Assembly: GCA_964016885.1 (NCBI GenBank)
Contig: OZ024743.1
Span: 153,698,001 to 153,762,000 of the forward strand
Direction of reading: 5' to 3'
Length of the DNA: 64,000 nucleotides
Origin: Eledone cirrhosa
Lineage: Eukaryota
Shown: in pieces, positions 7,071 to 44,546 of the stretch
Position numbering within the stretch: position 1 is the stretch's first letter
How the letters are laid out: every line of letters starts with the position of its first letter
The notes under the pieces: generated by a model
Databases searched by the model: none
Seen by the model: only the letters and a program-made list of their open reading frames with translations
What the model was told of the DNA's origin: nothing
Position numbers and translations under genes: made by a program

Positions 7071-7959
7071 TATATGTATATATCTATATATACACACACA
7101 TCTAATTTCATATATATATATACATGTATACATATTTACATATATATACATACATATATTTAAAGAACATATATGTTTGAAAAGCCCAATTTCATATGAA
7201 GAAATTGTTTATATAATATATGTATACTGGGAATTCTATGAAAATATAAATTAATGAAGCAATGTTAACTTATGTGAAAAATGTTTACCATGCCTATGGC
7301 ATGACTGTTAACTACTTTATCATTAATGAAATATCGATGTTGCCTGTATTGCTATGGTGATAATGATCTACTAACAAGTATAGCATTCCTGTTTGGGATT
7401 CCATTCTGTGGAGCCTAAATCATGTCCTTATTATTGGCAATGGTACTTACCTATTAGTCCAACCAGTGGTAAACACATAACATTGGAGATATTGTATCAT
7501 AATTAAGTTATTTTTGTAATGTATTTCAGCCACAGCTCCAAATCATGTTTGTCTAATATAGCTGGGTTTGATTTGAAGAAGATTTAGCTAATATTTTCAT
7601 TGAGTTGAATGAATATGTAAGTTCTCAATGGTTCTAGACTAACTGCTATAGATTGTGTGGAACTGAGATCAAATATTAACACGGTTTAAACTTATATTAG
7701 ATTGGTAACCAACTCAGCAGTTTTGAAAACTATAATAGTTGTCCATACACATGAAGAGCTTCCAGTAATAGCACTTGAAACAAAATAACAAGATACTTCT
7801 TCTTCTTCTTCTTCTTCTTTTTCTTCATCAGATTTATTTTTAAAAAACTTCGAAAACATCACTTCCCACCAAAACAAAAGTGGAAATTTTCGACCTTCAA
7901 ACGGTAAACAAGTTTCAGCAGCCACTGTAGATTTCACGACAACTACGACTACTACAGAC

Positions 7960-9883
7960 ATGTCTGTCGACCATTCCACTGAATGTGAAGGCAAAACTCA
8001 AAATCTACCATCACAACCGCTCCCAATTAGCAGCAGTATCATCTGAAAACGACATCACCACCACCACCGCCACCACCACCACAACAACAACAACTCAAAG
8101 CAACAACGACAATAACACCGACAGATTCAATGTAAACACGGATGGCGGGGGCAACAGCAACAACAAACAAAACAACAACAACAACACCAATAACAACAGC
8201 AAGAACGACAACACCAACAACAAGAGCAACAGAGGCACCACCTTTGCTGCAACGCTTATTGGATATTGATATTAGAGATAAAGAGGAACAGTTGACCCAG
8301 GCGTGGGGGCTAATTAAACGGGAGAAGTTCTGGGCAAACCTGACCATCCCGGACGGGGCAATAGCGGCCATGCAAAGGAGGACGGTGAACTTTCGATGCA
8401 TTTCGGTGCAGACGCGCGAAGTGGAACTTGCCAGCCAAGCAGAGGTCGAGGCTGCTTTGGAGTGCATCGGAAGTGACATATAGTATAAAGCAAGGGCCAA
8501 ACAGTTCGGTACCATCTCGGTACTATTGAAAACTGAGGCCCTTGCTATTAAGCAGTCGGTGACCCCCTGCAGAACGGAACGCATTATCATGCACCCGTCC
8601 TACATGGGTAAAAGGACAATAAAGGTCCGCATTCCCAGCATCCCACCAGGAATGAACATATGGTGGCTCCTGGGATGCGTAATTGAGGAGGGGACAGACA
8701 CTACCCTCCTGGATATCAAAAGGACAGAGAGAGAAGACTGGTCCGGAATGGATTTGGAGATTCTTCTCCAAATGAAACCGGATGACATGAACAACATCCC
8801 GGATTTTGCCCGCCTGCAGGACGGGACAACAATCCAACTAATCACTGAGGGAAGAAGACCGCACTGCTTCGACTGCGGGGAAGCAACGCATCTGCGAACC
8901 TTCTGCCCTCAGCGCAAAAATGCAGGGGGTCGCAAACCTCCTTTGTTTCCAACGCCAGTGTCAGCACGGAAAGCTGCACCACCACCACCACCACCACCAA
9001 AAACAACACCAACAAAGACACGGACACCAACATCAAAAATAGCCGGACCACCACCAAAACCGAAACCAATCCAAGGAGAAAACGAGGAAAGCTCTCCCAC
9101 TCGCCCCCCCCCCCCCCAATTATACACATAGACAAAACAATAAACGCACACACAGATACAGAGACACTCAAAGCCACAGACCCTTTGTCTTCCAGCAGCG
9201 AAGATGAAGGAAAACCCAAAAGTGCAAAAAAAAAAAAAACAGAAAACTCACCAAAAAAAGCCCAAACAAAACACAAAAACATACACAACAAAAAATACAG
9301 ACCCCACTAACGCAAACATTTCCCCAATAACATCAGCACCAACAGCAGCATCGACACTACCCCCACAATTCCCAAAACGCAAACAACCTAAACAAACACA
9401 AGTACAAATAAACACACAAATACCTGAAATTGCAGACACCACATCTACAACAAACACAGACATACCCGAAACAACATCACCAAAACCATCACCACCAGTC
9501 ATCAAAACGAAAACAAATAAAACCACACCAAGAAAATGTTAAAAAGTTCGTGCTTGTCAGAAGGGCCAACGATAAACTGATGGCCCTCTTAGCACGAATG
9601 CGAGGACATTCAAACAGAGGGGGAGATCTTTGAAATGAGCACATTTTGCGTGCCAGAAGATTTGCTTCTGGTCCGAATGTCACTCGATTCCTTCAAAGAA
9701 ATTCGGGAGAGCTTTCCTCAAGACGTGGGAACCCCGAATGTGAAACCCACATCGAGACTTTTAAAGGGGTTCTCAAAAGAAACCCCACCAACCATGGAGG
9801 TCGAGCCATCCGACCTTCACAAGACCCCGGGAGGTAAGAAAACCTTCCCTCTCTCTTTTAGCTTGCCAACATCGCCATATTAA
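7960..9883 (+). pseudogene. Tx1-A ORF1 (gag-like, one CCHC knuckle, Pro/Thr-rich), frameshifted
   Basis: ORF pieces 8142-8483, 8526-9131 (Cx2Cx4Hx4C), 9204-9542 and 9635-9883. Homologous to the ORF1s at 19107-19777 and 38986-39993. Confidence 0.75.
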
Positions 9884-12800
9884 GAGTAGGAAGTTTAAAT
9901 ATTCGCGGCCTGGGGTCACCCTAGAAGCAGGGTCGCCTGCTCAACGACCTCTGGTCGCTGGAAATGGATGTGATTGCCGTCAGCGAGACCAGAATTTCCG
10001 ACACACGCACACTAGCCCTCATTTTCGACGACTATCAGATCATCGCATCTGTTACAAGGCCGGGAATGAGAGGTGAGGTTGCAGTGTTGTTTAGGAAAGG
10101 ACTGGATCTGTAGGTAAGGTCGATTTTCCGGGACCCGGACGGTAAGTTGGTGGCCTTGGATATGAGCAGTAGCGAAGGTGGTGTCTTTAGACTGCTGGTC
10201 GTCTACGCCCCTACAGGGGCCGGACGGTCGGACTTCTTTAGGCGACTGGAGACCTTTCTGAGTACGTCTCGCCCTTTACTGTTAGCGGGGGACTGGAATG
10301 GCATCTTAGACGCACGCTGGGATTGTATGGGAGTAGCTGATAGGAGCGGGGGGGGGGTGCAAAAGCCTCAAGCACCTACTCAGTCAGTTCCAACTGTCTG
10401 ACAGGTATCGACTGGACTTCCCCAATGCGCCAGTATGGACATGGACCAACCGAATGGGGGTCATCTAGATCGTATATAGACAGGATGTTCATTAGGAAAA
10501 TAGATAGAAATAGTGTAGGCTGCCCACTGTTTAAAACGGTCGCCTATTCAGATCACAAATTTGTGATCTGTATGGTCGACCTAGATAAAACGCGTAGGTT
10601 GGGACCGTGTTACTGGAAGCTGAACATGTCATTTCCGGCACATAAGGCTTACAAGGACCGAGTCAACAATTTAGTTAAGCAAAAGTTGACGGAGGATCAA
10701 CAACAGATGATGGGGGGCTCTCAAAAGAGAGATTAGAGTAACTTCGATAGAGTTCAGCAAAGAACTAGCGTTAGAGAAAAATAGAAAGGAGGAGGAGCTG
10801 GTAGATAATTTAGACGAGGCTATTTGTAATGGCATTGCAATTGACGTGCTAGCGGCGCGAATGGCATTAGACCATTTCTTCAATGCGAAACCGCGAATGT
10901 TGCATTGTCAGAGCTAAGGCGCGTGCGCTGAGAAACGAAGGAACCAAAGCTGTTCGATGGGCCCGCGTGGGGGAGGCGCAGCGTGATAATAAAAACACAC
11001 TTCGCTCTTTGGCGGACCTAGACGGACACGAGATAAGCGATTCCAAGTGGATGTGTGAGGCCTTTCGCCATTTTGCTCGGTTGTTCGGGAGAGTGGCGAG
11101 TCATAGAGAGTAGCGGACTTCAGTCCCTAAGTTGACGGCTTGCCGCGCATCTCGACGGTCGACGCTGAGCGATGCGAAAGGCAAATTACTTCAGCCGAGA
11201 TTCAGGATGCCCTTGTCGGCTGCATGAGGCGCAAGCGACCCGGTTTGGATGGTCTGCCCTACGAGCTTTACGTAAATATGCCAGACTTTTTCTCCAATCT
11301 CCTCGAAGCCCTCTACTGCAACTGGCAGCAAAACGGGAGTATTCCCAGTTCTGTGAGCCGGGCGTAGTGACGCTGATAAGGAAAGACGAAAACAAGAGGG
11401 ACACATTAGACAATTTCAGGCCCATAACTCTGCTCAGTTTAAGATTTTGGCCAGGGTGTTAGCGAAGAGGTTGGCGCTTGTCGTTGGGGATTTGGTTGGG
11501 GAGGCGCAAACTTGCGCAATCCCAACCAGGTCCATACACGACAACCTCCACCTAATGCGATACATCATAGAAAGGGTAGGGTGTAAACCTGGCTTCGGTG
11601 GGGCTCTGATCAATTTAGATCAATGGAAAACATCGATAGGGTCAACCATCGGTACCTGGAGGTTGTCCTCAATGCGCCTGGCTTCGGCCATGTCTTCAGA
11701 AGCTGCATTGCTGCAATGCATAGCGGCACCTGCTCGATTGTCAAAATTAATGGTCACCTCTCGGAACCGTTTCAGGTCTCCCGATCGGTCCGTCAAGGGT
11801 GCCCTCTCTCCTCCCTTCTGTACGTATTGACTCTCGAGCCTTTACTGCGGAAGCTTAAGCTGTTGCAGGGCATCCCACTCGAACCGGGACGCGGAAAGGC
11901 TGTGACGACATCACCGTGATGGTGTTGGACACCTCAGAAATCGAGGTGGTCGGCAACTTATTGGAGGAATATGAAAGTTTGACGGGAGCAAAACTTAACC
12001 CGGAAAAGTCGGTGGGCTTGCAACTCGGCACCTAGAGAGGCAAGTCCATGCCGTCCAACAGCGTCGTTAGGCGCTGGACGGACGGACCGGTAAAGTTGCT
12101 AGGGGTTTGGTTCGGGCCAGACCTCCAGGTGGGTAAGAATTGGGACGAGGTGACGGGCAGGGTAGCCAGTCTCACCCAGAAATGGGCTGGTATGAAGCTA
12201 TCACTGAAAGGTCGGGCGGAGGTGGCGAACGCGTACATCGTGTCCGTCATCTATTACCGTCTGACCATCGTCCTTTGCCCCCGTTCGCGCCTCGCCATCC
12301 TGGAGCGGCTCCTCTTCAAATTCTTGTGGAGAGGTCAGGTTCAGCTGGTGGGGCGGTCCATCTGCTGCCAGCATCCTCTACGTGGAGGGCTGGGCATGCC
12401 GTGGCTAATGATGCGCCGACACGCGCTGAGGCTGCGGCATCTCCAGATATTCTGCCTAAACGGTGAACAGGTGTGGTCGCCGTTTGTTAGACGGGCCTTT
12501 CCGCAGCTCGTTTCTTTGACTGAGCTTCAGTCCTGGGTCAAGAAGAGACCGAGACAGAGTGACTGGCATCTGGAATGTTGCCAGGCACTCACTGCCCTCT
12601 ACCAGGCGGGAAATGCGGTCTGTGGAACTTCCACTCTCGAGTTCTATAGAGGATTAGTGGTGGGCAAGTGCGACGACGCACTCGTAGAGGCTCTGGTAGT
12701 CAACAAAGTCGAACTAACCAGTTAAAACCGGAGGACCTTCGAGCCGGGGACGATGGATAATTTCCAAAAATCCATCGCTTGGCAGTGCTACCGGGGGGGG

Positions 12801-13287
12801 GGGGCACTGCCGGTTCGAGATAAACTCTACAGACACGGAAGTACTGTCAGACGGACCTGCCCGAGATGCGCGCAGAGCGACGAAACTGTTTTGCACGCAC
12901 TCGTCCAGTGTCCGTGCATTACTGACTTGTGGAGTTATGTTGAACAGCTGTTGTTGCGTGTAGAACGGATCCGGCTATCGGCCGAGTCCATTGTGAAGAT
13001 CGACCCGCCGCCTTCTTTTGGCCAGGAACGGCAGGCAATTTTCCTCTGTCTGGTGGCAGTAGCGAAAGAGGTTGTATGGTGGACGATGTTGAAAGGACTG
13101 AAGACAGACACTTTTCTCTTCGGCCAATCCCTCATCAACTTTTTCAAGTTTCAGTTGGAAAGGAAGGTGAGGGTGGAGAGAGAAGTGCCCCCCCCCCCCC
13201 CCAGGACATAGTACATTTGCTGATACGTGGGTGAATGTGACGAGAATGGCCCGTGTGAGTGGGCCTACTCTGGTCATGCGGCTGTAG
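9871..13287 (+). pseudogene. Tx1-A ORF2 (APE-RT-CCHC), disrupted
   Basis: Motifs VVYAPT, AGDWN, SYIDR, SDHK, YWKLN, PGLDGLPYELY, QTCAIPTRSIHDN, SVRQGCPLS and CPRC-x8-H-x4-C, with many frameshifts. Confidence 0.9.
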
Positions 13288-13581
13288 GTTGGTAAATTTG
13301 AGAGGAGAGACGTGCCCTTCCAGGGTGCTCTCGAAGCATCGGATCGTTCAGGACTGGTGGGGTACCTGAGCGAACCCTAGGTGGTCATCGCCCCTATTGG
13401 GGAATTTTTTCTTGTTGTAATTTTATTGTTACTTTATTGTTACTTTGTTATTGTTACTTTATTGTTATTCATATTGTTTACTCGATTTTTCTTTAAAACC
13501 CCACTGTCCCAGTCTTTTGTATTGTCCCCTATATGTCGGCCTTTGTGGCCAATGAATGAAATCATCATTATTATTATTATT

Positions 13582-15692
13582 AGGAGCTGTGGCGCTGCTG
13601 AGAAAGGATCCGAACAAGGGGGATAACATAGATAATTTTAGGCCCATAACTCTGCTAAACACAGAGTTCAAGATTTTGGCCAAGGTGCTAGCAAAAAGGT
13701 TGGCGCTTGTCGTTGGTGGTCTGGCGGGAGAGGCGCAGACATGCGCCATTCCCGACAGATCCATCCACGACAACCTCCACCTCATGCGATACATCGTAGA
13801 GAGGGTAGCTGGGGAACCTGGCACGGGTGGGTCCTTGATCAATTTAGATCAGTCTAAAGCTTTCGATAGGGTCGACCATCGTTACTTAGCGGCAGTCCTG
13901 AGGGCGGCTGGGTTTGGGCCCGTCTTCAGAGGCTGGACAGCGACATCTGCTCTGTGGTGAGAGTGAACGGTCACCTTTCGGAACCGTTCAGCATCATGCG
14001 CTCGGTCCACCAATGATGTCCTCTCTCGTCGCTCTTGTACGTATTGACTCTCGAGCCGTTACTGCACAAACTGAAGACGTTGAGGGGGTCCCGCGCGAAC
14101 TAGGATGCGGAACATCCGTGTCAGCATATGCGGACGATGTCATTGTAGTGGTGACGAACGCCAAACACATCGAGGCGATCGGCACTACACTAAGAGAATA
14201 CGAAGCGGTGACATGAGCAATGATCAACCAGGAAAAGTCAGTGGGCCTGCAGCTTGGCATCTGGAGAGGCAGGTCCATGCCGTCCAACAGCGTCGTCGGG
14301 CGCTGGACAGACGGACCGGTTAAATTGCTCGGGGTCTGGTTCGGTCCGGACCTCCAGACAGACAAAAACTGGGACGAGGTGACGAGCAGGGTGGCTTCTC
14401 TCACCCAGAAATGGGCGGAGAGGAACCTATCCCTGAAAGGTCGAGCGCAGGTGGCTAACGCATACATCGCGTCCGTCATCTACGACCGCCTGACCGTGGT
14501 ACCTTGTCCTAAGCCCCGCCTGACTGAGCTGGAGCGTTTGCTCTTTCGCTTTTTGTGGAAGGGACGCGCTCCGATGGTCAGGCGTCCATCTGCTGTCAAC
14601 ACCCGCTACGTGGAGGGCTGGGAATGCCGTGGCTGATGATGCGCAGACACGCGATCAAGCTACGACATCTCCTGGGTCAAGCGAAGACCGAGAGGAAGCG
14701 CTTGGAGGCTGGAATGTCTTCAGGCGATCACAGCCCTCAACCAATCGGGCAATGTGATCGGTGTAAACTCCACCTTGGCGTTCTATAGAGGAATAGTGGA
14801 AGGGAAGAGCAACGACGTACTTGGGGAAACTCTAGGCGTCGACGAAAATGAACTAGCCAATCTCTTCGGAAGAACTTTCGGGCCGGGGCCTATGGACAAC
14901 TTCCAGAAATCCCTGGCCTGGCAGTGCTACCGAGGAGTATTGCCAGTTCGGGATAAACTCTACAGGCATGGAGGTGCCGTCAGCCGGGCATGTCCGAAAT
15001 GTGCGCAGGGCGACCAAACCGTCCTGCACGCACTCGTCCAGTGTCCGAGCATTGCTGACATGTGGGTTTATGTCGAATACATGCTGTCGCGTGCAGGACG
15101 GATCCAGCTATCAGCTGAGTCTATCGTGAGGATTGCCCCGCCCTCTTCCTTTAGTCGGGAAGGGCAGGGAGTTTTTATCTGTTTGGTGGCCATGGCGAAA
15201 GAGATAGTATGGTGGACACGTTTGAAAGGGCTGAAGACGAGCATTTACCTATTCTGTGATGCCCTGATTGACATTTTCAAATTTCATTTGAAGAGGAACA
15301 TCAGGGTAGAGAGGGAAGTGCTCTCTTCCCAACATTTTGTTGAAAGATGGGTGAGAGAGGCAAGAATGGCCCGAGTGAATGGGCCTACTCTGAGTATGTG
15401 TCTGTAAATTAAAGGTGGAAAACTGGGAGAGGGCACTTGCCCTGGTGGTCAGGGTCACTGTGGCCTTTTAATGGGCTTTCTCCACGAATGTCCCTCGGAA
15501 GTCTCCCCCCTATTGGGGATTTTTTTCATTGTTCTATTATTACATCCTCTTTTTCTTGTTTTTTTACACGCAGAAATGCCCTTTTGTACCGTCCTGTATT
15601 GTCCTGTACTGTCCTTAATGTCTACTTTGTGTAAACCCTTGTGGTTAATAAAGAAAGCATTATTATTATTATTATTATTGTTGTTGTTATTA
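13582..15692 (+). mobile_element. 5'-truncated Tx1 LINE, subfamily C
   Basis: Starts in RT directly after (ATT)n: NFRPITLLNTEFKILAKVLAKRL, DQSKAFDRVDHRYL, AYADDV. Its 3'UTR closely matches 43827-44068 and ends in a (TTA)n tail. Confidence 0.92.
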
Positions 15693-15871
15693 CTCTTTGA
15701 GTCTCAGTCATTGATGTTAGTTAACTGGAAAGTTTGTTGAAATGAATATCAAGCCACTACCTGCAGCCTCAGATATTCAGGACGTATCGGAGGGTTCTTG
15801 CTGTTCCCAGCAAGCATGCCTTTTGAAGCGTTCCGAAAAGCGTGAAGGGGCCAATTTTCTTTAACCATCCC
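15693..15871 (-). mobile_element. R4/Dong-like LINE family alpha, ~180 bp 3' stub
   Basis: Same 3'UTR and C-terminus as 28881-30100, with (ATT)n on both sides. Confidence 0.88.
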
Positions 15872-15931
15872 ATTATTATTATTATTATTATTATTATATT
15901 ATTATTATTATTATTATTATTATTTGTATTG

Positions 15932-17835
15932 TTCTTTGAGTCTCATTCATTGATGTAATTTAACTGAAAAGTTTGTTGAAATGAATATCAAGCCGCTACC
16001 TGCAGCATCAGATATTCAGGACGTATCGGAGGGTTCTAGCCTGTTCTAAGCAAGGCTGCCTTTTGAAGTGTTCAAAAGCGGGCTGGACTAATCTTCTTTA
16101 ACCATCGTTGGAAACTCTTTGAGATAGTACCTAGTACACCTATGACAATCGGGATGACCTTGACTTCATGGCAGTTCCAAATCCCCTTTATCTCCCACTT
16201 TAAATCCTGGTATCGGTTAATTCTCTCCCTCTCCTTTTCTTGCATTCTCGTGTCAAATGAGCAGGCTACATCTACAATCAGGCACGATCTTTTTTCGTTG
16301 TCCAAAACCACCAGGTCAGGCCTATTGTGTTCTAATTTCTTGTCCGACTGTATCCTAAAATACCATATCACCTTCAGCTGATCGTTTTCTATCACAGACT
16401 CTGGCTTATGCTCATACCACTTCTCAGAATGTGGTAAATTGTTTACTTTGCATAGGTGCCAGTGGATCACCCTGCCCATCACATCATGTCTCCAGCCTTT
16501 ATAGTGAGTCTGGGCTAGGTATTTACACTCGGATACAATGTGAGCCACAGTCTCCTCTCTCTATCCACTAATCCTTCACAGTGGGCTAGCCTCCTTCTTG
16601 TAAATATGGTGTTTCACCCACTTCGATCTGAGGGCTGGCTGTTGCGCAGCCATTAGCATTCTTTCTGTAGCTTTTTTAAGGTCCCCTCTTTTTAACCTGT
16701 TCCATGTCTGTGGATCTCTAAATTCTGTTTTCTTAAAGAAGGTGCTATGAAGGGATTTTTCATGAAGGTTGCTCTACCTCCTAGTTGTTATTTCCTCCTT
16801 GGGCATCCCCTGGTCTATTGTCTTCTCCTTCGGTACACTTTTGAGCATTGGCTCCCTTCTGTCAGCCATGTATTTGTGCAGGTTGTTTTTCTCAATATGA
16901 ACACAGTCCTCTATGCTGATAATACCTCTTCCACCAACAGATTCCTTTACTTAAAGTCTATCGACATCACTCCTCTTGTGAAACATGTTGTAGATAGTCA
17001 TTGGCTTCCTAGTCTTCCTATCCATGTTCTTTTGTTCAGCAACATACCATTTCAGAATTCTCGTACTGAACCCTATAATTGTTTCTGCTTTGGCAGAAGA
17101 CCAGCAATTATCCCAGTTTATTACTGGTACTTTATTTTATCGACCCTGTAAGGATGAAAAGCAAAGTTAACCTCGGCGGGATTTGAACTCAGATCATAAA
17201 GGGCCGTAACTCTTTGCTGCAAAGCATGGCATCCGAGCCTCTAACTATACTGCCAATCTAATAATAGACACAGCTCTGGAATTTACTGCACTTATGACTT
17301 TCCTACTATTTAGATGTGACTTTAATACGTTCCTTACTCTCCTTATGTATTCAGATCTTATCAATTCCTTCATTTTTTTGTTCTTGATATCATCTGCCTC
17401 CAGAACACCTAAATATTTGTATCCCTCTTTAGTATCAATTTCCTTTATCATCTCACCTGTTGGTACCTGGATTCCGTTGCTTCTGCTCAATTTACACCTC
17501 TTCATCACTAGGACTCCACACTTATTAATACCAAAATCGATACATATATCATTGCTGAAAATACGGAGAGTGTCAATAAGTACATCCAACTCCTTCTCAC
17601 TCTTCCCAAACAGTTTAAGATCATCCATGAAGAGCAGGTGGTTGATGGTAAGCTCTCCTCTTCCAAACTTATATCCTGTTCTCACCTTTGGCAATATAAG
17701 GGACAGGGGTATCATAGCAAGGACAAAAAGCAGAGGGGACAAACTATCTCCCTGGAAGGTCCCTCTCTTGATCTTCACGCCTTCTAAGGATTCTCCACCT
17801 GATGTTAACTGTTTCCCAGTACTTCAGACTTATGC
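15932..17835 (-). mobile_element. 5'-truncated R4/Dong-like LINE family alpha, interrupted by a SINE
   Basis: RT motifs FQGDSLSPLLF and HLLFMDDLKL. RLE motifs RHD and NRPDLVVLD...LIVDVAC...RYQDLK. Confidence 0.92.
17074..17257 (-). mobile_element. tRNA-derived SINE inserted into the Dong ORF
   Basis: Reverse complement matches the SINE at 18223 and 44345. It interrupts the Dong sequence CC|TAATAATAGACAC, which is intact at ~30020 and ~34348. Confidence 0.9.
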
Positions 17836-17878
<43 letters not shown>

Positions 17879-17879
<1 letters not shown>

Positions 17880-18200
17880 CGCTTTTTGTGAAAGGGACGT
17901 GCTCCCATGGCCAGACGATCCATTTGCTGTCAACACCCGTTGCGTGGAGGACTAGGCATGCCGTGGCTGATGATGCGCAAACATGCTCTGAAGCTGCGAC
18001 ATCTCTGGTGCTTCCTTGAATAGGTGTGGTCGCCGTTTCCCAGACGCGCTTTTCCCCAGCTCGTCTACTTGACGTAGCTGCAGTCCTGGATCAGGAAAAG
18101 ACCAAGGGATAGCGTTTGGAAGCTGGAATGTCTCCAAGCGCCCACCGCCCTCTTCCATCTGAGCACTAGTATCGATGGGACGTCCACCTCGATGTCCACC
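17879..18200 (+). mobile_element. Internal Tx1 ORF2 fragment
   Basis: Homologous to the FRFLWKG...CCQHPLRGGLGMPWLMMR region, with (ATT)n on both sides. Confidence 0.85.
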
Positions 18201-18222
18201 ATTATTGTTATTATTATTATTT

Positions 18223-18470
18223 TTTGGCAGTATCGGTAGAGGGTCGGGCGCCATGCTTTGACGCATAGAGTTACGGTCCTTGCCATTCTGAGTTCAAATC
18301 CCGCCGAGGTTAACTTTGCCTTTCATCCTTACGGAGTCGATAAAATAAAGTACCAGTAATGTACTGAGTATTTGCTGGCCTTGTGCCAATAGCAGAAACA
18401 ATTATTATAAGACGGCGGTAATTGCTGGCCTTGTGCCTAAAGTAGAAACAATTATTATAAGACGGCGGTA
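18223..18470 (+). mobile_element. tRNA-derived SINE with duplicated 3' tail
   Basis: A-box-like TGGCAGTATCGG, B-box GAGTTCAAATCC, central GCCGAGGTTAACTTTGCCTTTCATCC...GATAAAATAAAGTACCAG. The tail GGCCTTGTGCC...AGAAACAATTATTAT occurs twice. Confidence 0.88.
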
Positions 18471-18479
18471 ACTACGGCG

Positions 18480-28669: not shown

Positions 28670-28880
28670 TTCTCCACAAATGTCCCTCCGAAGTCTTCCC
28701 CCTATTGGGGAATTATTCATTGTTATTTTTTTGTTACATCCTCTGTTTTTGTTTTTTACACGCAGAAATGCCCATTTGTACCGTCCTGTATTGTCCTGCA
28801 CTGTCCTTAATGTCTACTTTATGTAAACCCTTGTGGTTAATAAATAAATCATTATTATTATTATTATTGTTATTGTTATT
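28670..28880 (+). mobile_element. Tx1-C 3'UTR stub with tail
   Basis: Matches 43897-44068 (TCTCCACAAATGTCCCTC...CCCTTGTGGTTAATAAA). Confidence 0.9.

Positions 28881-30099: not shown

Positions 30100-30100
<1 letters not shown>
28881..30100 (-). mobile_element. 5'-truncated R4/Dong alpha with an uninterrupted 377-aa C-terminal ORF
   Basis: ORF 28955-30088 has GGRGL, CRICGEREETVAHIVSEC (CCHC), RHD and NRPD...VDVAC...KINRY (PD-(D/E)xK RLE). Confidence 0.95.
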
Positions 30101-30144: not shown

Positions 30145-30149
30145 CATTG

Positions 30150-33125: not shown

Positions 33126-33149
33126 ACTTTATTATTACTGTTGTTGTTG

Positions 33150-33203: not shown

Positions 33204-34922
33204 CTCTTTGAGTCTCAGTCATTGATGTTAGTTAACTGGAAAGTTTGTTGAGATGAATATCAAGCCACTACCTGCAGCCTCAGATATTCAGGACGTATCG
33301 GAGGGTTCTTGCTGTTCCCAACAAGCATGCCTTTTGAAGCGTTCCAAAAAGTGTGGCGGGGCGAATTTTCTTTAACCATCCCTAGAAACTTTTTGAGATA
33401 GTACCTAGTGCGCCTATGACAATCGGGACCACTTTGACTTCATGGCAGTTCCAAATCCTTTTTACCTCCCACTTTAAGTCTTGGTATCGGTTAATTTTCA
33501 CCCTCTCTTTCTCTTGCACTCTCGTGTCGAATGGGCAGGCCACATCCACAATCAGGCACGATTTTTTTCCTTGTCCAAAACCACCAGCTCACGTCTATTG
33601 TGTTCCAGTTTCTTGTCCGTCTGTATCCTAAAATCCCACAGCACCTTCACCTGATCGTTTTCTATCACCGACTCTGGCTTATGCTCATACCACTTCTCAG
33701 AATGTGGTAAATTGTTTACTTTGCATAGGTGCCAGTGGATCACCTTGCCCATCACATCATGTCTCCAGCCCTTATAGTGAGTCTGGGCTAGGTGTTTACA
33801 CTCGGATACAATGTGAGCCACAGTCTCCTCTCTCTCTCTCTCCACAGATCCTGCACAGTGGGCTAGCCTCCTCCTTGTAAATATGGTGTTTCAACCACAT
33901 CGTTTTGAGGGCCTGCTCTTGCGCAGCCATTAGCATTCCTTCTGTAGCGTGTTTAAGGTCTCCTCTTTTCAACCAGTTCCATGCCTGTGGATCTCTGAAT
34001 TCAGTTTTCTCAAAGAAGGTAATATGAAGGGATTTGTCATGAAGGCTGCTCTTTCTCCTTGTTGTTATTTCCTCTTTGGACATCCCCTGGTCTATTGTCC
34101 TCTCCTTCAGTACAATTCTGAGCATTGGCTCCTTACTATTAGTCACGTATTTGTGTAGGTTGTTTTTCTCCATCTGAACACAGTCCTCTATGCTGATAAG
34201 ACCTCTTCCACCTTCAGATCTCCTTAAGTAGAGTATATCGACATCACTCCTCTTGTGGAACATGTTGTAGTTAGTCAATAGCTTCCTAGTCTTCCTATCC
34301 ATTTCTCTTTGTTCAGCAACATTCCAACTCAGAATACCCGCACTGTACCTAATAATAGACACAGCTCGGGAATTTACTGCACTTATGGCATTCCTATTGT
34401 TCAGATGTCACTTTAATATGCTCCTTATTCTCCGAATGTATTCAGATCTTATCAATTCCTTCATTTTTTTTTTCTTGATGTCTTTAGCCTCCAGAACACC
34501 CAAATACTTGTATTCTTCTTCAGTGTCAATTTCCTTTATCATCTCACCTGTTGGTACCTGGATTCCGTTGCTTCTGCTCAATTTACCCCTCTTCATCACA
34601 AGGACTCCACACTTCCTTATACCAAATTTCATACATATATCAGTGCTGAAAATACGGACAGTGTCAACAAGCACATCCAACTCCTTCTCACTCTTCCGAA
34701 GAGCTTAAGATCGTCCATGAAAAGGAGGGGTGATTGATGGTAAGCTCTCCCTTTCCAACTTGTATCCTGCTCTCACTTTTCGCAGTATAATGGTCAGGGT
34801 CATCAGGGCAAGGACAAACAACACAGGGGACAGACTACCTCTCTGGAAGATACCTCTCTTGATCTTCCCGCCTCCCAATGATTCTCCAGCTGATGTTAAT
34901 TCTGTTTTCCAGGGCTTCATAC

Positions 34923-34923
<1 letters not shown>
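33204..34923 (-). mobile_element. 5'-truncated R4/Dong alpha
   Basis: RT and RLE pieces homologous to 15932-17835 and 28881-30100, with (ATT)n on both sides. Confidence 0.92.
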
Positions 34924-34970: not shown

Positions 34971-34972
<2 letters not shown>

Positions 34973-37900
34973 AGTTGCATTTATCTTGCTTTATGTTCAT
35001 ACGAGTTATCACCAAGTTACAACCAGTGACCTTAAGAGACAACAAGGTCTGCCATGTTCAAGAAAGGACATACATATTCACACATGCATCTTTAGTGTTT
35101 AGACTTGTGATGTACTTATATTGACAGAATCTTCCTTAGTATATGGGCAGTTCCCATTAGTACTATCTTTTGTATTTCTCCTATACGCGGGTTTCCTGGG
35201 ATTTGCGATAAGTAATCATTAGACCCCTTAGGTATCATTCCCAGAGCGCCTACAACCACTGGTATTGTTTTAGTTCTCAATTTCCACATTTTTCCAATTT
35301 CTATCTCCAGGTCCTTATACTTGCTCAATTTTTCAAATGTTTTTATAGATACATTCTTGTCTATTTGAACAGACATATCAATTAGCAGGCATACCCTCTT
35401 TTGAAAGTCCTTCAATATTATATCAGGTCTATTTGCATCTATTTTTCGGTCTGTTTGGATGCTAAAGTTCCACAAGATTGAGATGTGATCTTTTTCAAGT
35501 ATGGATGGTGGTTGATGCTCCCACCAATTCTTTTGATGGGGCAGGTCAAAATGCTTACACATTATCCAATGTATGTATTGTGCAGCTCTGTCATGCCTGT
35601 TTAGGTATTCGGTTGGAGCTATAGGACTGCACATTGAAATTATATGGTCAATGGTCTCTGGTTGTTTTTTGCATACACGGCATAATGGGCTGCACCCAAT
35701 TTTTATTATGTTGGCTTGGTAATTTTTTGTTGGCAGACACTGATCTTGTGCCGATATAATCAGTCCTTCAGTCTCCGATTTCAGTCCAGAGGATGCCAAC
35801 CACTGATGGGTTAAATTTTTGTCAACATCAGTATTGTTAGCTCGCTCTGGGTATTTTCCATACAGAGGCTTTTCTTGCCATTTCTTAGCCAGTTTCTGTA
35901 GCAGTTCTTTCTTTGCAGTTACTTTTACCTGCTTTGCTTTTTCTGTGTTTTCCATTTCAGCAGTAAATGGGACTTCTGAAATTTGTAGTCCATTACTGTA
36001 TCTTTGTGCATCTTTTGTAATGGAATATGATCTTTTGATGCTTTCGTGTTTCAAAACGAGTTTGATCATCCAATCATGTGATTCCCTTAGACATGTAGAT
36101 AATCCAATTGTTGCAGTTTTCAACGCAATGTCTAACTGGATTAACCCACGTCCTCCTTCTTTCCTAGGGAGATATATTCTATCTATATCTGCCTTAGGGT
36201 GATGCATTCTGTGCATGGTTAAGAATTTTCGAATTTTTGTATCGAGCCTACGGATCTCTGTGCTTGACCAGTTGATGACATTGTAACTGTAGGTTACTAC
36301 TGGTATGGCAAGCGTGTTTATGGCATCGATCCTATTCCTGGCATTCAATTCCGTTCTTAAGATTGCTCTTACTCTGCCGTAACATTCCTTCCTTATCCTT
36401 TCCCTCATTGTCGAGTGCTTGATTCCGTCTCCTTCATAAACACCTAGATATTTGTAAGTTTTTTCTTGATCAAGTTCTCTTATCACGTTCCCCCGATCAA
36501 GATTAATGTCTGAACTCTTCAGCAGCTTTCCTCTGGTGAACGTTGCTTTGGCGCATTTATCTAGTCCAAACTCCATTTTAACGTCATCACTGAACTGCTT
36601 CACAGTGGATAATAGCCCTTGCAATTGTCATCATTTTTTGCAAATAGTTTCAGGTCATCCATGTAGAACAGGTGATTAATGGTTTTGTCATAGACTTTAT
36701 ATCCATGTTTTGTTTCATTGAGCATTTTACTTAATGGTATAAGTGCGATGCAGAATAAAAGCGGTGATAAAGAGTCACCCTGAAAAATTCCACAATTAAT
36801 ATTAACTTCTCCAGCTTCCAGTGATTTTGTTTCACTATTCAAACTGAATGACAAAAACCTCCTGACAACGGGGTATATTTTGAAAATCTCTAAACATTTT
36901 TCAATCCAACTGTGTGGCAAACTATCGAATGCTATTTTATAATCTATCCAAGCAATCGATAGATTTTTGTGTCTATTATGACAATCTTCCAGTATCATTT
37001 TGTTAACCAAAAGCTGATCCTTACAGCCATATGAGCCTCGTTTACACCCTTTCTGCTCAATGGGAAATAGGTCATTTGTTATCAGGTGGTCATATGTGTA
37101 TTCAGTTAGGACTGATGTTAAAATGTTATACATTGTGGTCAAGCAAGTTATCGGTCTGTAATTTTTGGGATTGTTTGTCTCATCATTCTTCGGAAGCAGG
37201 AATGTAATGCCGTTAACTAGCCATGATGGTATCTTTTCTGGCTCCTTAACTATTTCATTGTAAAGTTGGGCTAACAGCTCATGAGACTCTGTGAAGGCAT
37301 TTATCCAAAAGTTTTGTATTTTGTCTTTTCCTGAGGATTTCCATTTGCTGGTTTTTCTTAGAGCCAAGCGCAACTGTTCAACTGTTATATTTTCCCATGT
37401 TTGTTCCTCAAGCTGAGCTGTATCTTTCATTTGTCTGTCTATCCATGGGGCATGTATGTTATGAGCTTTTTCTTCGGCCCAGATCTTTTCCCAGAATTCT
37501 TGCACTTCCTCCTTGGGTGGTATTGATTTAGCAGTTATTGTTGAGTTACCAATTTTTCTGTAGAAGTTTCTTTGGTTGTTTTTGAATATATTATTGTCCT
37601 TATAGAATCTAGATCGTTTTTCAAAGCGCCTTATACGAGCAGCTTTGGTCGACACTTTTTGCTTGATTATTTCTATCAGCATGTCTATGTCACATGTTGA
37701 TTTTATACTGTACTTTTTTTTTAATATTCTAAGTTTAGTTTGTTTAACATGTTCACCTACTTTATAGTTTGTTAAAATTTCTATGTCAGATCGGAGAAGG
37801 TTTATTTGGCGATTGATGTTCTCTTGCCAAGTAGATTTCTTGTTGGAATTCCTTTGTTTTTTCATCTTCACTCCACATAAGTGAGTGGTGACTTTAGCCG

Positions 37901-38306
37901 ATGCATAATAGAGATGATTTAAATCAGTAATGTTTAGTTTGTTTGTGATGATAATGTTTTTGAGAATTATGTTAGTCTTGTGTATTATCTTTTGGTTCTG
38001 TTTGGAGTTCTGGATCTTAGGGAGGGTGTCTCGTTGCCCCATGTCAGATTCTTTCATTTTCATCCATTCGATCATAATTTCATCCTTCAAGTTGGCAAGT
38101 TCATTCTCATTCATTTCTTTATCATTTACGATCTCATTATTTTCATTTGGAGTTTCATCCTGAGCATGCACTCCCTCCACTTTTTCGATCCTTTCTTTAA
38201 TTTGTTCTGTTTCCAGTGCTTCCGCCCCAACCCTGGGGTTCGAAGTGTTACAGTTTACCTCGTTTTCACTGACACATGTTTCATTTTCCCTTCGCTGATT
38301 TTGTGC
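34971..38306 (-). mobile_element. Near-intact R4/Dong-like LINE, family gamma (5'-truncated)
   Basis: ORFs 36600-38180 (526 aa: [37 protein letters not shown]) and 35116-36624 (502 aa: CRVC..H..C, RHD, RPD..LIDMS..K..KY) are separated by one frameshift. Confidence 0.95.
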
Positions 38307-38308
38307 TA

Positions 38309-38350
<42 letters not shown>

Positions 38351-38548
38351 GGCTACCTACGTAGTAAATCGTATCATCGTGAGCTCCGCAAAGGTTTGTT
38401 ATTTCCGTTTGTTAAAAATTGCCATTTATGGAAAATTTTTATATATAAGCGCACATACATTGTTTTCCGAAAAGGACACCCAAAAAGATTGGGCCTTGTG
38501 CCCAAAATTTAAACTTTTATGATTATAAAAAAATTTCTTTGAAAAAAA

Positions 38549-40418
38549 ATGCCTAATTCACCTCTGCACCAAGCAGCTGAAAGCCTTTCTCACAAATTAA
38601 CACCTCACACCGACACCACCATTGTAAATGTTACTACGTTTGCCAACACTACAAAAAATATAAGCAGTAGCAATATTTTAAATTTGTCTCAGGCAGACAT
38701 TCATTTCCCGCCATTACCAATGGCTGCAGGTGTTAAAGCCTCCACCACCACCACCACCGCGACAACCACCACCCCCACCACCACCACAACTCAAACTAAA
38801 ATTAATATTGACACAAATAACGATAGCAACAACAACAACAATGATATTATAAAAACTACCCTCAGTTTTGCCAGAGTAGCAAAACAGTTCGAAGCATTTA
38901 CGGTAACTCAGGAGGATTTAGAAAATGGCAAACAAATAGTAAAGAAAGATGGGTACAGGGTCAGCCTCACCCCCCACCTAATAAAATGGAGCATCGGCGC
39001 CTATGCACCGTGTCGTATCGAACAATAAATGTAAAATCGCGCCGAGTGGAACGGGCATCCGAGTCCCAAATCCAAAAAGCTTTGGGACATGTGTGGGCAA
39101 GAAAAACCCACATCAGACGTGGGCAGAAGTATGGAACCGTGGACGTGTTCTTTGAAACACCAGAGGAGGCTAGAGAACACTCCATGGCCCCATTAAGAAG
39201 TGACGACTTCACACTCGTCCCAAGCTATTGTGGCCAGAGACTCGTAAAGATCAGGGTGACCCACTTTCCACCGGCCATCGAAATTCCCTGGCTAATAGCG
39301 GCCGTCCTCGCCGGCATCGAAGCCAACACAAAAATAATAGCAATCGCAAAAGAAAAGCAGGAGAACTGGTCCGGATCTGGGATGGAGCTCCTGATCCAAT
39401 CGGACCAAAAAAGCATTGAGGAGATCCCAGAGGTAATAGACCTCACTGACGGCAGCCACCTCACGGTAATTGTCGAGGAGAGAAGACCTAGGTGTGTCGT
39501 TTGTGGTGAAGGAACCCACCTAAGGGCTTTCTGCCCTCAGGCTAAAAGGTTGAGGCCACCTCTCCTACCCACCCCAGTGACACAACCCTCAACACCACCA
39601 GTAGCAGAGATAGTAGCAACAACTGTAGCAGCAACAACAGAAGCAACTATAACAGCAACAACCCCAGCAACAGTAGCAAAACCAACACCACCACCACCAC
39701 CAGCAAAACCAACACCACCACCACCCAACACTTCAGAACTAGCACCAGCGCCTACACCATCCACCACGCCACGAGCAAATCTAACGCCTGTGGAGGATTT
39801 TCCACTCCCCGGCCTATCACAACTGGAGACAGATTGTGACGACGAGGAGTGGGAAAACAAAAGAAACCAAAAAAGAAAAAATTCTCTTCCTTCCCTCTCC
39901 AAAAACAAAATACAGAGGGAAACAAATAAATTAAGAAACAAAAAAGTTAGGACAGATATGCCACCATCCACACCAGCATCACCAACCCCATGAACCCAAA
40001 CACCAACACCATCACCATCATTAACCCCAACACCACCATCACCTACACCACAAAAGTCACCAAAATGCGAAACAGAAACAAACCCACAACAAACGCAAAC
40101 AAAACAAAACAACCAAAACGATACACACTACACAGCATTAAATTTGAACAACAAGCAATTATTACACTACATCCAACACAACACCAGCTTCACAGAAAAA
40201 GACTACACAACAACCCCAAAATTCACACCACCTCCACACATACAAATCACTCGCATCACACAGAAAACGTACATGACACTAAAAAAAAATTCCCCAAAGA
40301 CATCGGAGACTTCCGACAAGCACTCTCCAGGAGGATTTATAAGGACATCCTTCCTGAGGAGGCCACAATCAGTGAAAAGGATGGAAAAACCGTCCTTCCC
40401 CTACGAGAAGTAAGGTAA
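38549..40418 (+). pseudogene. Tx1-C ORF1 (CVVCGEGTHLRAFC knuckle), frameshifted
   Basis: ORF pieces 38549-39028, 38986-39993 and 39990-40418. Confidence 0.8.
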
Positions 40419-40443
40419 GTGGTCTTTTCCACTCCTTTTCAAC

Positions 40444-43400
40444 ATGACCTCACTCAGAATAGGCAGCATAAATGCGCGTGTCTTGGGGTCGTCATGGAAG
40501 CAGGGCCACCTGCTCAACGACCTCAGGTCACTAAACATAGATGTAGTGGCCATCAGCGAGACCAGAATCTCCGAAGTACAGGCCTTCGCACCGATCTTCG
40601 AAGGCTACGATGTGTACGCATCTCCCAGCCGTCCGGGATCGAGGGGAGGAGTTGCTGTGCTTTTTCGGAGAGGTTTGGATCTTGCCATACGGGCCATCTT
40701 CCTGGACCCAGAAGGTAAGTTGGTGGTGCTGGACGTGACCAGCGGAGACGGGCAAGCTTTCAGGTTAGTGGCCGTCTATGCCCCGACAGGAGCAGGGCGG
40801 CCTGATTTCTTCCGGCGTCTGGAGACCTTTCTTGGAACGTCCCGCTCTTTAGTGTTAGTGGGCGACTGGAACGGGATCTTAGATGCACGCTGGGATTGTG
40901 TGGGATTAGTGGATAGGGAAGGAGGGTGCAAGAGTCTCACCAACCTGCTCAGACGTTTTGAACTGTCTGACAGGTACCGAATGGATTTCCCGAATGTACC
41001 AATGTGGACTTGGACAAATCGCATAGGGTCATCCAGATCATATCTAGATAGAGTATTTTGTAGGGAAATAGATAGGTCTAGCATAGGCTGTCCACAATTC
41101 AAGATAGTCAGCTACACGGACCACAAATTCGTGATCTATGTGCTTGACTTAGATAGGCTTCATAGACGAGGACCCGGCTACTGGAAGCTAAACGCGTCCT
41201 TACCAGCGCGCAAGGCCTAAAGAGACCGGATTAGCGAACTAGTTAAGCGGGCGTTGACCGGGGCCATCGTCAACAACAAGTGGTGGTTTGCTCTGAAAAG
41301 AGCAATTAGAATAGAGTCCATTAGGTTTAGTAAGACTTTAGCAATAGAGAAAAATAGAGCAGAGGGAGAATTAGTTAGAAAATTAGATGAGGCGCTTAGC
41401 AAAGGCATCGCGATCGACGTACTTGCGGCGAAATTGGCCCTTGACCAATTCTTCAATGCAAAGCACGAAGGCTGCGTTGTCAGAGCTAGGGTGCGTGCTC
41501 TCAGACACGAGGGGACGAAAGCCGTTCAATGGGCCCGAGTGGCGGAGGCGCGTCGTGGCAACAAAGCCACGATCCGGTCATTGGTGGACCACGACGGGCG
41601 CATACTACTCGATCCCGGACAAATGTGTGAAGCTTTTCAGCGACACTTCGCTCAACTGTTTGGGGGCAGTGGCAGGCCGGATCGAGGGATGGACTTTAGT
41701 GTCTACCTCGACGGACTGCCGCGGCTTTCGGCCACTGAGGCGGAGTGTTGCGAAAAGCCGATAACAACCGCTGAAGTACAGGATGCAATGACTAGTTGCA
41801 CAAGGGGTAAATCGCCTGGTTTGGATGTTCTACCCTATGAAATTTACGTACAAATTCCAGACTTGTTCGGAGGCCTCTTGGCGGACGTCTACTGCAACTA
41901 GCAACAGAATCGGAGAATTCCCAGCTCTGTGAGCCGAGGAGCGGTGGCGCTGCTGAGAAAGGATGCGAACAGTGGGATAACATAAATAATTTTAGGCCCA
42001 TAACTCTGCTAAACACAGAGTTCAAGATTTTGGCCAAGGTGCTAGCAAAGAGGTTGGTGCTTGTCGTTGGTGGTCTGGTGGGAGAGGCACAGACATGCGC
42101 CATTCCCGACAGATCCATCCACGACAACCTCCACCTCATGCGATACATCGTAGAGAGGGTAGCTAGGGAACCTGGCACGGGTGGGTCTTTGATCAATTTA
42201 GATCAGTCGAAAGCCTTCGATATGGTCGATCATCGTTACCTAGCGGCAGTCCTGAGGGCGGCTGGCTTTTGTCCCGTCTTCAGAGGCTGGATCGCTGCCA
42301 TGCACAGCGACATCTGGTCTGTAGTGAGAGTGAACGGTCACCTTTCGGAACCATGCAACATCATGCGCTCGGTCCGCCAAGGATGTCCCCTCTCGTCCCT
42401 ATTGTACGTATTGACTCTCGAGCCATTACTGCACAAACTGGAGACGTTGAGGGGGTCCGGCGCGAACTAGGATGCGGAAGATCGGTGTCAGCATATGCCG
42501 ACGATGTCACCGTAGTGGTGTCGAACGCCAAACACATCGAGGCGATCGGCACTACACTAAGAGAATACGAAGCGGTGACAGGAGCAATGATCAACCAGGA
42601 AATGTCAGTGGGCCTGCAGCTCGGCACCTGGAGAGGCAGGTCCATGCCGTCCAACAGCGTCGTCGGGCGCTGGACGGACGGACCGGTTAAATTGCTAGGG
42701 GTCTGGTTCAGTCCAGACCTCCAGACGGACAAAAACTGGGACGAGGTGACGAGCAGGGTGGCTTCTCTCACCCAGAAATGGGCCGAGAGGAAGCTATCCC
42801 TGAAAGGTCGAGCGGAGGTGGCGAATGCGTACATCGCATCCGTCATCTACTACCGCCTGACCGTCGTACTTGTCCTAAGCCCCGCCTGACTGCGCTGGAG
42901 CGTTTGCTCTTTCGCTTCTTGTGGAAGGGACGCGCTCCGATGGTCAGGCGGTCCATCTGCTGTCAACACCCGCTACGTGGAGGGCTGGGCAGGCCGTGGC
43001 TGATGGTGCGCAGACACGCGCTCAGGCTACGAAATCTCCACCTCTTCCTCGACGGTGATCAGGTGTGGTCGCCGTTTGCTAGACACGTTTTTCCCCAGCT
43101 CGAAGACCGAGAGGGAGCGCCTGGAGACTGGAATGTCTTCAGGCGCTCACATCCCTCGGCCAATCGGGCAATGTGATCGGTGGAAACTCCACCTTGGCGT
43201 TCTATAGGGGATTAGTGGAGGGGAAGAGCGACGACGTACTTGGAGAAACTCTAGGCGTCGATGAAAATCAACTAGCCAATCTCTTCGGAAGGACTTTCGG
43301 GCCAGGGCCTATGGACAACTTCCAGAAATCCCTGACCTGGCAGTGCTACCGGGGAGCTTTGCCAGTTCGGGATAAACTCTACAAGCATGGACGTGCCGTC

Positions 43401-43826
43401 AGCCGGGCATGTCCGAGATGCGCGCAGGGCGACGAAACCGTCCTGCACGCACTCGTCCAGTGTCCGAGCATTGCTGACTTGTGGGTTTATGTCGAACACC
43501 TGCTGTCACGTGTAGGACGGATCCTGCTATCAGCTGAGTCCATCGTGAGGATTGCCCCGGCCCCTTCCTTTAGCCGGGAAGGGAAGGCAGTTTTTATCTG
43601 TTTGGTGGCCATGGCGAAAGAGATAGTATGGTGGACACGTTTGAAAGGGCTGAAGACGAGCACTTACCTCTTCGGTGATGCCCTGATTAACTTTTTCAAA
43701 TTTGATTTGAAAAGGAAAATCAGAGTAGAAAGGGAAATGCTCTCTTCCCAGCATTTTGTTGAAAGATGGGTGAGAGAAGCAAGTATGGCCCGAATGAATG
43801 GGCCTACTCTGAGTATGTGTCTGTAA
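40444..43826 (+). pseudogene. Tx1-C ORF2 (APE-RT-CCHC) with stops and frameshifts
   Basis: The 258-aa APE is uninterrupted (SINAR, SETR, VYAPT, GDWN, YLDR, TDHK, GPGYWKLN). RT and CPRC..H..C follow in later pieces. Confidence 0.93.
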
Positions 43827-44066
43827 ATTAAGGGTGGAAAACTGGGAGAGGGCACTTGCCTTGGTGGTCAGGGTCACTGTGGTCTTTTAATGGGCTTTCT
43901 CCACAAATGTCCCTCGGAAGTCTCCCCCCTATTGGGGAATATTTCTTTGTTATTTTATTTCACCCTGTGTTTTTTACACGCAGAAATGCCCATTTGTACC
44001 GTCCTGTTTTAACCTGCACTGTCCTTAATGTCTACTTTATGTAAACCCTTGTGGTTAATAAAGAAA

Positions 44067-44099
<33 letters not shown>

Positions 44100-44100
<1 letters not shown>

Positions 44101-44340
44101 GGCGGTGGATTGGCAGTATCAGTACTGCGTCAGACAACTTGTTATACGGCCAAAGAGTTACAGCCCTTTATGTTCTGAGTTCAAATCCTGCCAAGGTTAG
44201 CATTTCTTTTCATCTTCAAGGGGTTGATAAAATAAAATACCAGTAATGCACAGTTGTCGATATGATCGACTTTCCCCTCCTCCCCCCCCAAAAAAAAATT
44301 GCTGACTTTGTGCCTATAGTAGAAATCATTATTATTCTTA
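44100..44340 (+). mobile_element. tRNA-derived SINE (diverged variant)
   Basis: GGCGGTGGATTGGCAG head, GAGTTCAAATCC B-box, central domain, tail TTTGTGCCTATAGTAGAAATCATTATTATT. Confidence 0.85.
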
Positions 44341-44344
44341 TTAG

Positions 44345-44546
44345 GGCGGTGGATTGGCAGTATCGGTAGAGGGTCGGTCACCATGCTGTGACGCATAGAG
44401 TTACGGCCCTTGCCATTCTGGGTTCAAATCCCGCCGAGGTTAACTTTGCCTTTCATCCTTACGGCGTCGATGAAATAAAGTACCATTAATGTACCGGGTA
44501 ATTGCTGGCCCTGTGCCAAAAGTAGAAACAATTATTATTATTATTC
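44345..44546 (+). mobile_element. tRNA-derived SINE, full length
   Basis: Near-identical to 18223-18410, with a (TTA)n tail. Confidence 0.9.

Follow-up and report, generated by a model that had tools for sequence, protein, structure and literature searches.

A 64,000-nucleotide window of the 3.0-Gb chromosome-scale genome of the octopod Eledone cirrhosa (GenBank assembly GCA_964016885.1, contig OZ024743.1, positions 153,698,001 to 153,762,000 of the forward strand) contains a 36.7-kb stack of retrotransposons (7827-44545), composed of seven Tx1-type pieces on the plus strand, eight Dong/R4-type pieces on the minus strand and five short interspersed elements (SINEs). The Tx1-type and Dong-type pieces derive from long interspersed elements (LINEs) with unrelated nucleases, an apurinic/apyrimidinic endonuclease-like (APE) enzyme and a restriction-like endonuclease (RLE), respectively. 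Comparison with copies elsewhere in the genome indicates, with a probability which we put at roughly 0.78, that Tx1 and Dong insert genome-wide at (ATT/TAA)n microsatellites in opposite orientations, and that stacks of them likely grow as insertions add new landing sites. The stack in the window is a large example of this genome-wide rule, and in kind the locus is nothing out of the ordinary.

The sample comprised best-match loci (given L numbers here) for the window's families Tx1-C, Tx1-A, Dong-alpha, Dong-gamma and the SINE, with an RTE-type LINE as control, as well as 40 stretches of 10 kb at round coordinates; loci of the window itself were removed and duplicates were merged on the basis of their junction sequence. 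Tails were ATT in 71/77 Tx copies and TAA in none, and TAA in 93/97 Dong copies, with both repeats in one. At the 5′ side, full-length Tx copies followed ATT in 52/57 cases and TAA in none, and truncated Dong copies followed TAA in 59/73, compared to 0/18 for the RTE control (Fisher P of 4e-13 and 1e-10 for the Tx and Dong 5′ ends, respectively). The shared TAA/TTA target proposed in a first-pass annotation of the window is thus borne out at 5′ junctions across the genome. ATT likewise precedes six more motifs of 5′ heads that have Tx open reading frame 1 (ORF1) or APE matches downstream, and target duplications of 14 and 18 nt starting ATTATT were identified in two Tx copies. Dong target duplications were uninformative, as nearly all lie inside pure repeat.

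Orientation relative to the repeat, which had been named beforehand as a point on which the proposal could fail, was found to be non-random. Where Tx and Dong copies are neighbours across a tract, 34 pairs are tail to tail and 28 head to head with none head to tail, which places 62/62 in opposite orientation, while same-clade neighbours are all head to tail (40 Dong, 15 Tx). As a description of 5′ ends, 'strictly opposite' goes a little too far, and several observations weigh against the reading given above. The seed copies are the best matches to the window's families and so do not represent a random draw. Dong 5′ ends have ATT in 2/73 cases and no tract in 12/73. A tract was present at only 16/37 truncated Tx 5′ ends, although inspection by eye found 9 of the 21 misses to be false ends (nested SINE, other subfamily or recombinant), giving a corrected count of 16/28. 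The rows for full-length Dong in the automated 5′-end count are unreliable, the library having no true gamma head; counted by eye, just 11/19 full-length Dong-alpha heads have a TAA tract, with two lying beside GAA/CAA runs.

Leaving aside its minus-facing partner, the plus-strand LINE has predicted proteins which support its placement in the Tx1 clade. Elements of this clade encode a gag-type CCHC knuckle in an ORF1 distinct from ORF2, and ORF1 of copy C in the window contains such a knuckle (CX2CX4HX4C), with no match to a Pfam ORF1 family or to fish protein P0006 in its ORF1 part. In a full-length Tx1-C copy elsewhere in the genome, ORF2 is intact and codes for 1147 aa (L089, 334-3774, minus strand). 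Its domain matches are limited to Exo_endo_phos, RVT_1 and zf-RVT, with catalytic motifs present, and it thereby has the APE, reverse transcriptase (RT) and C-terminal zinc finger of Tx1 elements with no RNase H. This ORF2 scores 459 and 387 bits against the U2-inserted Keno-type sequences L357 and L351 and 293 bits against the TX1-named P0005, compared to 176 bits for human L1 ORF2p; the gap in score between the U2-inserted relatives and L1 favours the Tx1 clade. In an RT tree containing no L1-clade, Kibi or Koshi sequences, the family is nested among TX1-named and fish relatives, and the closest named protein relative of its RT is from Argonauta hians (73%). As the L089 ORF2 is intact, the Tx1-C family may still be active. 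Among nine inspected metagenome relatives, all distant (mostly 23-33% identity), none has an ATT tail. Keno-type ends in U2 small nuclear RNA (snRNA) were noted among the distant metagenome relatives L351, L357 and L360, with 2/9 of those inspected ending in U2 snRNA; in L360 a U1 gene lies ~2.3 kb downstream of the ORF.

The minus-strand elements fit Dong/R4 by their predicted domains together with the TAA target, a placement made by domains and target rather than by a named Dong or R4 reference. The eight pieces represent three families (alpha, gamma and delta) with ~35-40% protein identity to one another, and the (TAA)n target lies in sense orientation to them. Dong-gamma possesses an RT followed by a CCHC finger and a PD-D/ExK nuclease motif. 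In Dong-alpha the finger was matched by pattern, while the nuclease motif was missed by pattern but is visible in translation. A Dong-type profile matches R2 structures through to their C-termini (best E-value 5.5e-47). No N-terminal zinc-finger or Myb family match was found among 23 aligned Dong members, and their N-terminal block has invariant R, W, W and R residues, which would fit a Myb-like fold. The R4/Dong N-terminus is described as having no zinc fingers and a diverged SANT/Myb domain (PMC7998251). The Dong element of Bombyx mori is reported to self-cleave (PMC3774820), whereas here a hepatitis delta virus (HDV) ribozyme descriptor matched none of seven heads, and Rfam gave no HDV-like ribozyme at a Dong 5′ end (L257, 3500-4700), both being weak evidence.

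It is worth mentioning that the 5′ front regions of Dong-alpha and Dong-gamma (window 27623-28257, minus strand; L257 4014-5030; L268 3759-4800) are alike, with 71-89% DNA identity in longer patches in elements whose proteins are ~35% identical, which suggests a possible exchange of 5′ untranslated region (UTR) or promoter. This region has a short head motif resembling that of Tx1-A and a decayed Thr/Pro-rich frame; comparison with three Tx heads gave only low-complexity matches besides the common short head motif as signs of a Tx1 origin. The Dong-alpha 5′ UTR also has an internal landing site (window 27499-27622; L333-L349), where one to three antisense SINEs are found in 10/19 other copies. 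In sequencing run X1, which has another organism label, Dong-gamma (35180-38217) and the SINE occur at high depth with at least 98% likeness, together with almost no Tx1-C and little Dong-alpha, a pattern for which a recent shared burst or a transfer of Dong-gamma is possible.

A third kind of element using the tracts of the stack, overlooked in the first-pass annotation, is the SINE. Its polarity is that of Tx1, SINE/SINE and SINE/Tx pairs having the same orientation in 33/34 cases and SINE/Dong pairs the opposite in 25/27. A 3′ hairpin with the loop YTTGT and a stem of at least 3 bp was found in 76/85 Tx and 132/171 SINE copies, compared to 0/129 Dong, 0/22 RTE and 0.6% at random; stem letters vary among Tx subfamilies and the SINE with pairing kept. 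A common 3′ hairpin is also the mark of stringent LINE/SINE pairs. Since loop and polarity are common to both, the SINE is quite probably a Tx1 passenger, landing at short sites and able to seed tails. Its target duplications are 8-26 nt in length and, with few exceptions among 42 sites, begin with ATTA, and the base preceding them is T or C in 32/42. Further upstream the sites are also non-random, with T at -8 in 28/42 and A at -7 in 25/42 and at -3 in 26/42. Three SINEs lie at one ATTA base of Tx1-C (~position 1787; L072, L086, L091) with unequal duplication lengths and are likely independent hits of one hotspot. Certain points count against the SINE as a partner of this kind. Aligned plainly, the 3′ ends of SINE and Tx show no significant similarity (best P 0.07), the site consensus is partly circular in that a duplication beginning at the SINE end was required, and the SINE is found mostly at short sites, with an ATT tract at 24/95 full-length 5′ ends, unlike Tx1. 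Rfam identified no tRNA head in two copies (44060-44600). The SINE may resemble OR2, a tRNA-derived CORE/OR-type SINE of octopus which PMC4758252 mentions by name only.

Target-primed reverse transcription is an established process in which the strand used is the one antisense to the inserted element; combined with the observed orientation, it points to opposite priming strands, A-rich for Tx1 and the SINE and T-rich for Dong. As the base before the SINE duplications is T or C in most cases, the Tx1 APE would be expected to nick after AAT, at a T-purine step as in other APEs. L1 nicks at such a step. The same is described for TRAS1 (PMC7265360). The AUU tail of the Tx1 RNA would then pair with the freed DNA end, and Dong would act as the mirror image with a UAA tail. 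The SINE would be carried by the Tx1 protein through the common 3′ hairpin and would seed ATT tails at short ATTA sites. Each insertion would leave a tract on both sides, and with it one more landing site.

A different account of strand choice is that RNA-DNA pairing sets the orientation, the nucleases cutting loosely or on both strands with only the strand complementary to the tail able to prime. Neither the shared target nor feedback is at odds with this account, which differs solely in the strand-choice step and which we regard as unlikely though deserving of attention. The tail of each element equals its target, the SINE uses very short ATTA sites, and the three SINEs at the same base of Tx1-C have unequal duplications, all of which would agree with pairing; for SART1, too, element RNA has been proposed to anneal to the strand that is cut (PMC7265360). 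However, pairing alone would permit the use of many short ATT sites, and full-length Tx copies are found almost only in tracts, while the non-random bases at -8, -7 and -3 of the SINE sites suggest DNA recognition extending past the paired bases.

With regard to stack growth, another LINE was found within 150 bp of the tail in 69/116 seed copies, or in 89/116 with SINEs counted, compared to 0/29 for SINE seeds, 0/11 for resolved RTE seeds and 0.98% at random, so that clustering, for which the first-pass annotation had proposed a test, stands out clearly from the ~1% given by chance. In 800 kb of DNA at round coordinates, Tx accounts for 5.0% and Dong for 1.7% of the sampled sequence, and 20/26 tracts of at least six units and 16/18 of at least eight units lie at LINE ends. 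With the neighbour rate of 0.595 and an assumed 20,000-100,000 sites, 14-69 stacks of 15 LINEs are expected under a geometric model, compared to 0.0003-0.001 under a fixed-site Poisson model. With tens expected under the former and ~0.001 under the latter, the size of the stack agrees with the tail of such a rich-get-richer process, of which it would be an impressive yet expected extreme. Smaller stacks obeying the same rule were present in 5/40 stretches at round coordinates; 400 kb of contiguous DNA held too few stacks for a size distribution. The growth by positive feedback claimed earlier is hence supported by the tracts at both ends, the 69/116 tails and the better fit of the geometric model, but is unproven, as uneven site quality could mimic it.

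Such unevenness is the basis of the view that there is no feedback and that a fixed pool of old tracts, very unequal in length, chromatin tolerance or weakness of selection, has become saturated. This we consider improbable. The Poisson test does assume equal sites, and the distribution is patchy, with one 200-kb block having no Tx1, Dong, SINE or tract and another having 10.9 kb of Tx. Against this, most copies have a tract at both ends, one tract thereby becoming two. The pieces of the stack range in best identity to fetched loci from no long close match to 98-99%, and this mixture of ages argues for gradual growth over time. SINE tails also host LINE ends where the SINE 5′ side has no tract (18/40 before curation; four of these 18 are SINEs nested in the Dong UTR, the clearer cases being L078, L112 and L192). 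Growth by insertion is the preferred reading. Its extension to a three-member self-renewing niche, in which the SINE plants ATT tails at ATTA sites and Tx1 and Dong colonise these from opposite strands, is tentative and to our minds has slightly less than an even chance of being correct.

Two further alternatives carry little weight. The tracts could be parts of the elements themselves, as tail and as 5′ repeat copied from the transcript, with stacking due to co-transposition or recombination. The greater frequency of tracts at full-length than at truncated Tx ends (52/57 and 16/37) would agree with this, but truncated Dong copies begin at many positions and still follow TAA in 59/73, neighbours vary between copies, and target duplications with unique breaks were found (L009, L022), rendering it very improbable. 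Least credible is misassembly of the 37-kb array by chaining through microsatellites, which would preserve polarity too, and although the public contigs of the best-matching sample are short and cut at tracts, bridging no junctions and giving no independent confirmation of order, the long pieces are never near-identical (at most ~96%), several tracts are just 12-30 bp, the array contains nested SINEs as well as junctions devoid of a tract, its Dong-delta portion is at low, single-copy-like depth in that sample, and the smaller stacks at round coordinates follow the same rule.

The stack itself agrees closely with its initial description. The approximately 20 abutting insertions proposed were counted as 20, the number and strand of the Tx1 and Dong pieces are unchanged, and all 15 listed junction tracts were found within ~7 bp with ATT on the plus strand. 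Between 7827 and 44530, all 23 tracts of at least three units have ATT on the plus strand and none TAA, where a random 31-nt window has a probability of 0.0032 of containing three units of a given polarity. The statement that nearly every junction is an ATT tract holds for polarity, but four junctions have no ATT tract of three units or more. These are the left edge at 7827, the junction at 18470, that at 25315/25316 where both flanking elements are shortened, and a SINE nested in Dong (~17075-17265). No Tx1 or Dong matches were found in the 30 kb adjoining the window.

At the left edge, a (CTT)n tract (7796-7826, plus strand), not the usual flank of the Tx1-A family, meets Tx1-type copy A (7827-13566, plus strand), which is decayed, lacks ~170 bp of its 5′ end and has an ATT tail at 13567-13581; its best identity among fetched loci is 91%. 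(CTT)n was considered as the target of family A and ruled out, since this copy is 5′-truncated and ATT precedes the majority of full-length copies. Compound (CTT)n(ATT)n or GAA/CAA runs do recur at junctions (window 7796-7826, L055, L081, L091, L106, L334, L344), which hints at a tolerance for NAA units, near the TTC of Koshi. Next is a Tx1-type piece (13582-15658, plus strand), 5′-truncated with an internal deletion and an ATT tail from 15659. It is followed by a 180-bp 3′ end of Dong-alpha (15693-15871, minus strand) with a tract on each side and by a 5′-truncated Dong-alpha piece (15931-17835, minus strand) with a head tract at 17836-17877, interrupted by a nested SINE (17075-17265, minus strand) at an internal AATAAT site, which obeys the local ATT polarity. 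Head to head with this Dong lies an internal Tx1-type piece (17879-18200, plus strand), followed by a tract at 18201-18219 and a SINE (18224-18469, plus strand) with its 3′ end present as two 50-bp tandem copies. Tx1-type copy B (18470-24113, plus strand) is near full length and decayed with an ATT tail at 24114-24153, and the 5′-truncated Tx1-type piece after it (24154-25315, plus strand) is missing its 3′ end at the tract-free Dong junction.

The right half of the stack begins with the 5′ half of Dong-alpha (25316-28257, minus strand), comprising the 5′ UTR, N-terminus and RT start, with its true 5′ end at the tract 28258-28289 and a SINE piece (27499-27622, plus strand) nested in the UTR at the recurrent landing site. 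A fourth Dong family ('beta') was considered for 25316-28257 and ruled out, as this is the 5′ half of alpha, the family of 33204-34923. There follow a Dong-alpha 3′ piece (28292-28643, minus strand) with a head tract at 28644-28670, a 180-bp piece of Tx1-type 3′ UTR (28671-28850, plus strand) flanked by tracts at both ends, and a further Dong-alpha 3′ piece (28881-30100, minus strand) with an open frame spanning the RT end, zinc finger and RLE. Dong-delta (30149-33128, minus strand) is decayed and has no long close match among fetched loci; it is followed by a 5′-truncated Dong-alpha 3′ piece (33204-34923, minus strand) and by Dong-gamma (34972-38308, minus strand), also 5′-truncated but young, being 98.6% identical to another copy, with its RT, CCHC finger and PD-D/ExK motif. 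Tx1-type copy C (38351-44068, plus strand) is full length between tracts at 38309-38350 and 44069-44098; it has ORF1 with the CCHC knuckle and ORF2 with APE (40414-41220), RT and zinc finger, the coding frames being interrupted by stops and frameshifts. A diverged SINE variant with a short ATT tail (44101-44327, plus strand) and a second SINE (44345-44545, plus strand), whose ATT tail (44531-44545) forms the right edge, complete the stack.

Other repeats were also identified in the window. An RTE-type LINE with a (TGA)n tail is present at 59160-61607 (minus strand) and 267-980, and in L222-L250; the open frame of the window copy closes in a weak PHD-like match, and about half of 29 other copies, by eye, have (TA)n-rich 5′ flanks, a second microsatellite niche. 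There is a decayed Ty3/Gypsy-like long terminal repeat element (47137-51594, minus strand) with DUF7041, RT, RNase H and an integrase finger, the terminal repeats of which match both directly and inverted, i.e., are palindromic. A 298-bp palindrome (6711-7008) and an inverted repeat pair of ~280 bp (2638-2918 with 5496-5764) resemble miniature inverted-repeat transposable elements.

Parts of this system are already known, namely Dong on TAA, the convergence of APE and RLE elements on one site, and opposite orientation on one repeat. The (TAA)n target of Dong is recorded for most insects, molluscs and cnidarians (PMC7998251). As in Dong of B. mori and relatives, the elements here have a single ORF with RT, CCHC finger and PD-D/ExK motif and a (TAA)n target, but unlike Dong elsewhere, three divergent families use the tracts jointly with an APE element. 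Tx1-clade APE elements on microsatellites include Kibi on (TC)n, Koshi on (TTC)n and crocodilian elements on (TTCC)n/(TTTC)n (PMC4494074); the (ATT)n target here is one base off the unit of Koshi and is used jointly with an RLE element. Convergence on one site of the U2 snRNA gene is reported for Keno (Tx1, APE) and Utopia (RLE) (PMC4640811). Their 3′ flanks are identical and they thus use the same strand of a gene target, whereas here opposite strands are used and insertion itself renews the target. TRAS1 and SART1 both have APE-type nucleases and belong to the R1 clade. These two families insert in (TTAGG)n in opposite directions (PMC7265360). That target is telomeric and both nucleases are APE, in contrast to the unrelated nucleases and dispersed microsatellite described here. 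In crocodilians, SINEU is likely carried by Tx1-Mar, with the same target preference and often in tandem (PMC4494074), but it combines a poly(A) tail with an snRNA head, while the SINE here has an ATT tail and a 3′ hairpin loop in common with its likely LINE. In Octopus vulgaris, Dong-R4 and L1-Tx1 are each present in abundance and have been active recently (PMC13282606), and the accessible parts of two cephalopod repeat papers give both clades with no target analysis (PMC13282606, PMC8967140). No ATT-specific Tx1 element or shared Tx1/Dong target was found in the open literature; Repbase, which lay outside this search, may hold an ATT-specific Tx1. What appears to be new is ATT as a Tx1 target, its opposite-strand sharing with Dong, and the likely partner SINE.

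Unrelated nucleases which would act on opposite strands of one three-base repeat provide a natural pair with which to separate the roles of nuclease and RNA primer in strand choice. A candidate for work on site-directed insertion is likewise available in an APE element that is intact, specific for microsatellites and accompanied by a short partner SINE. The system also gives a concrete account of how transposon hotspots and microsatellites could arise in octopod genomes. If the three-member niche is true, most long (TAA)n microsatellites in this 3-Gb genome would have been built by the elements themselves, as would ~7% of the genome (Tx1 plus Dong), and a retrotransposon clade would be fed by a commensal SINE unrelated to it.

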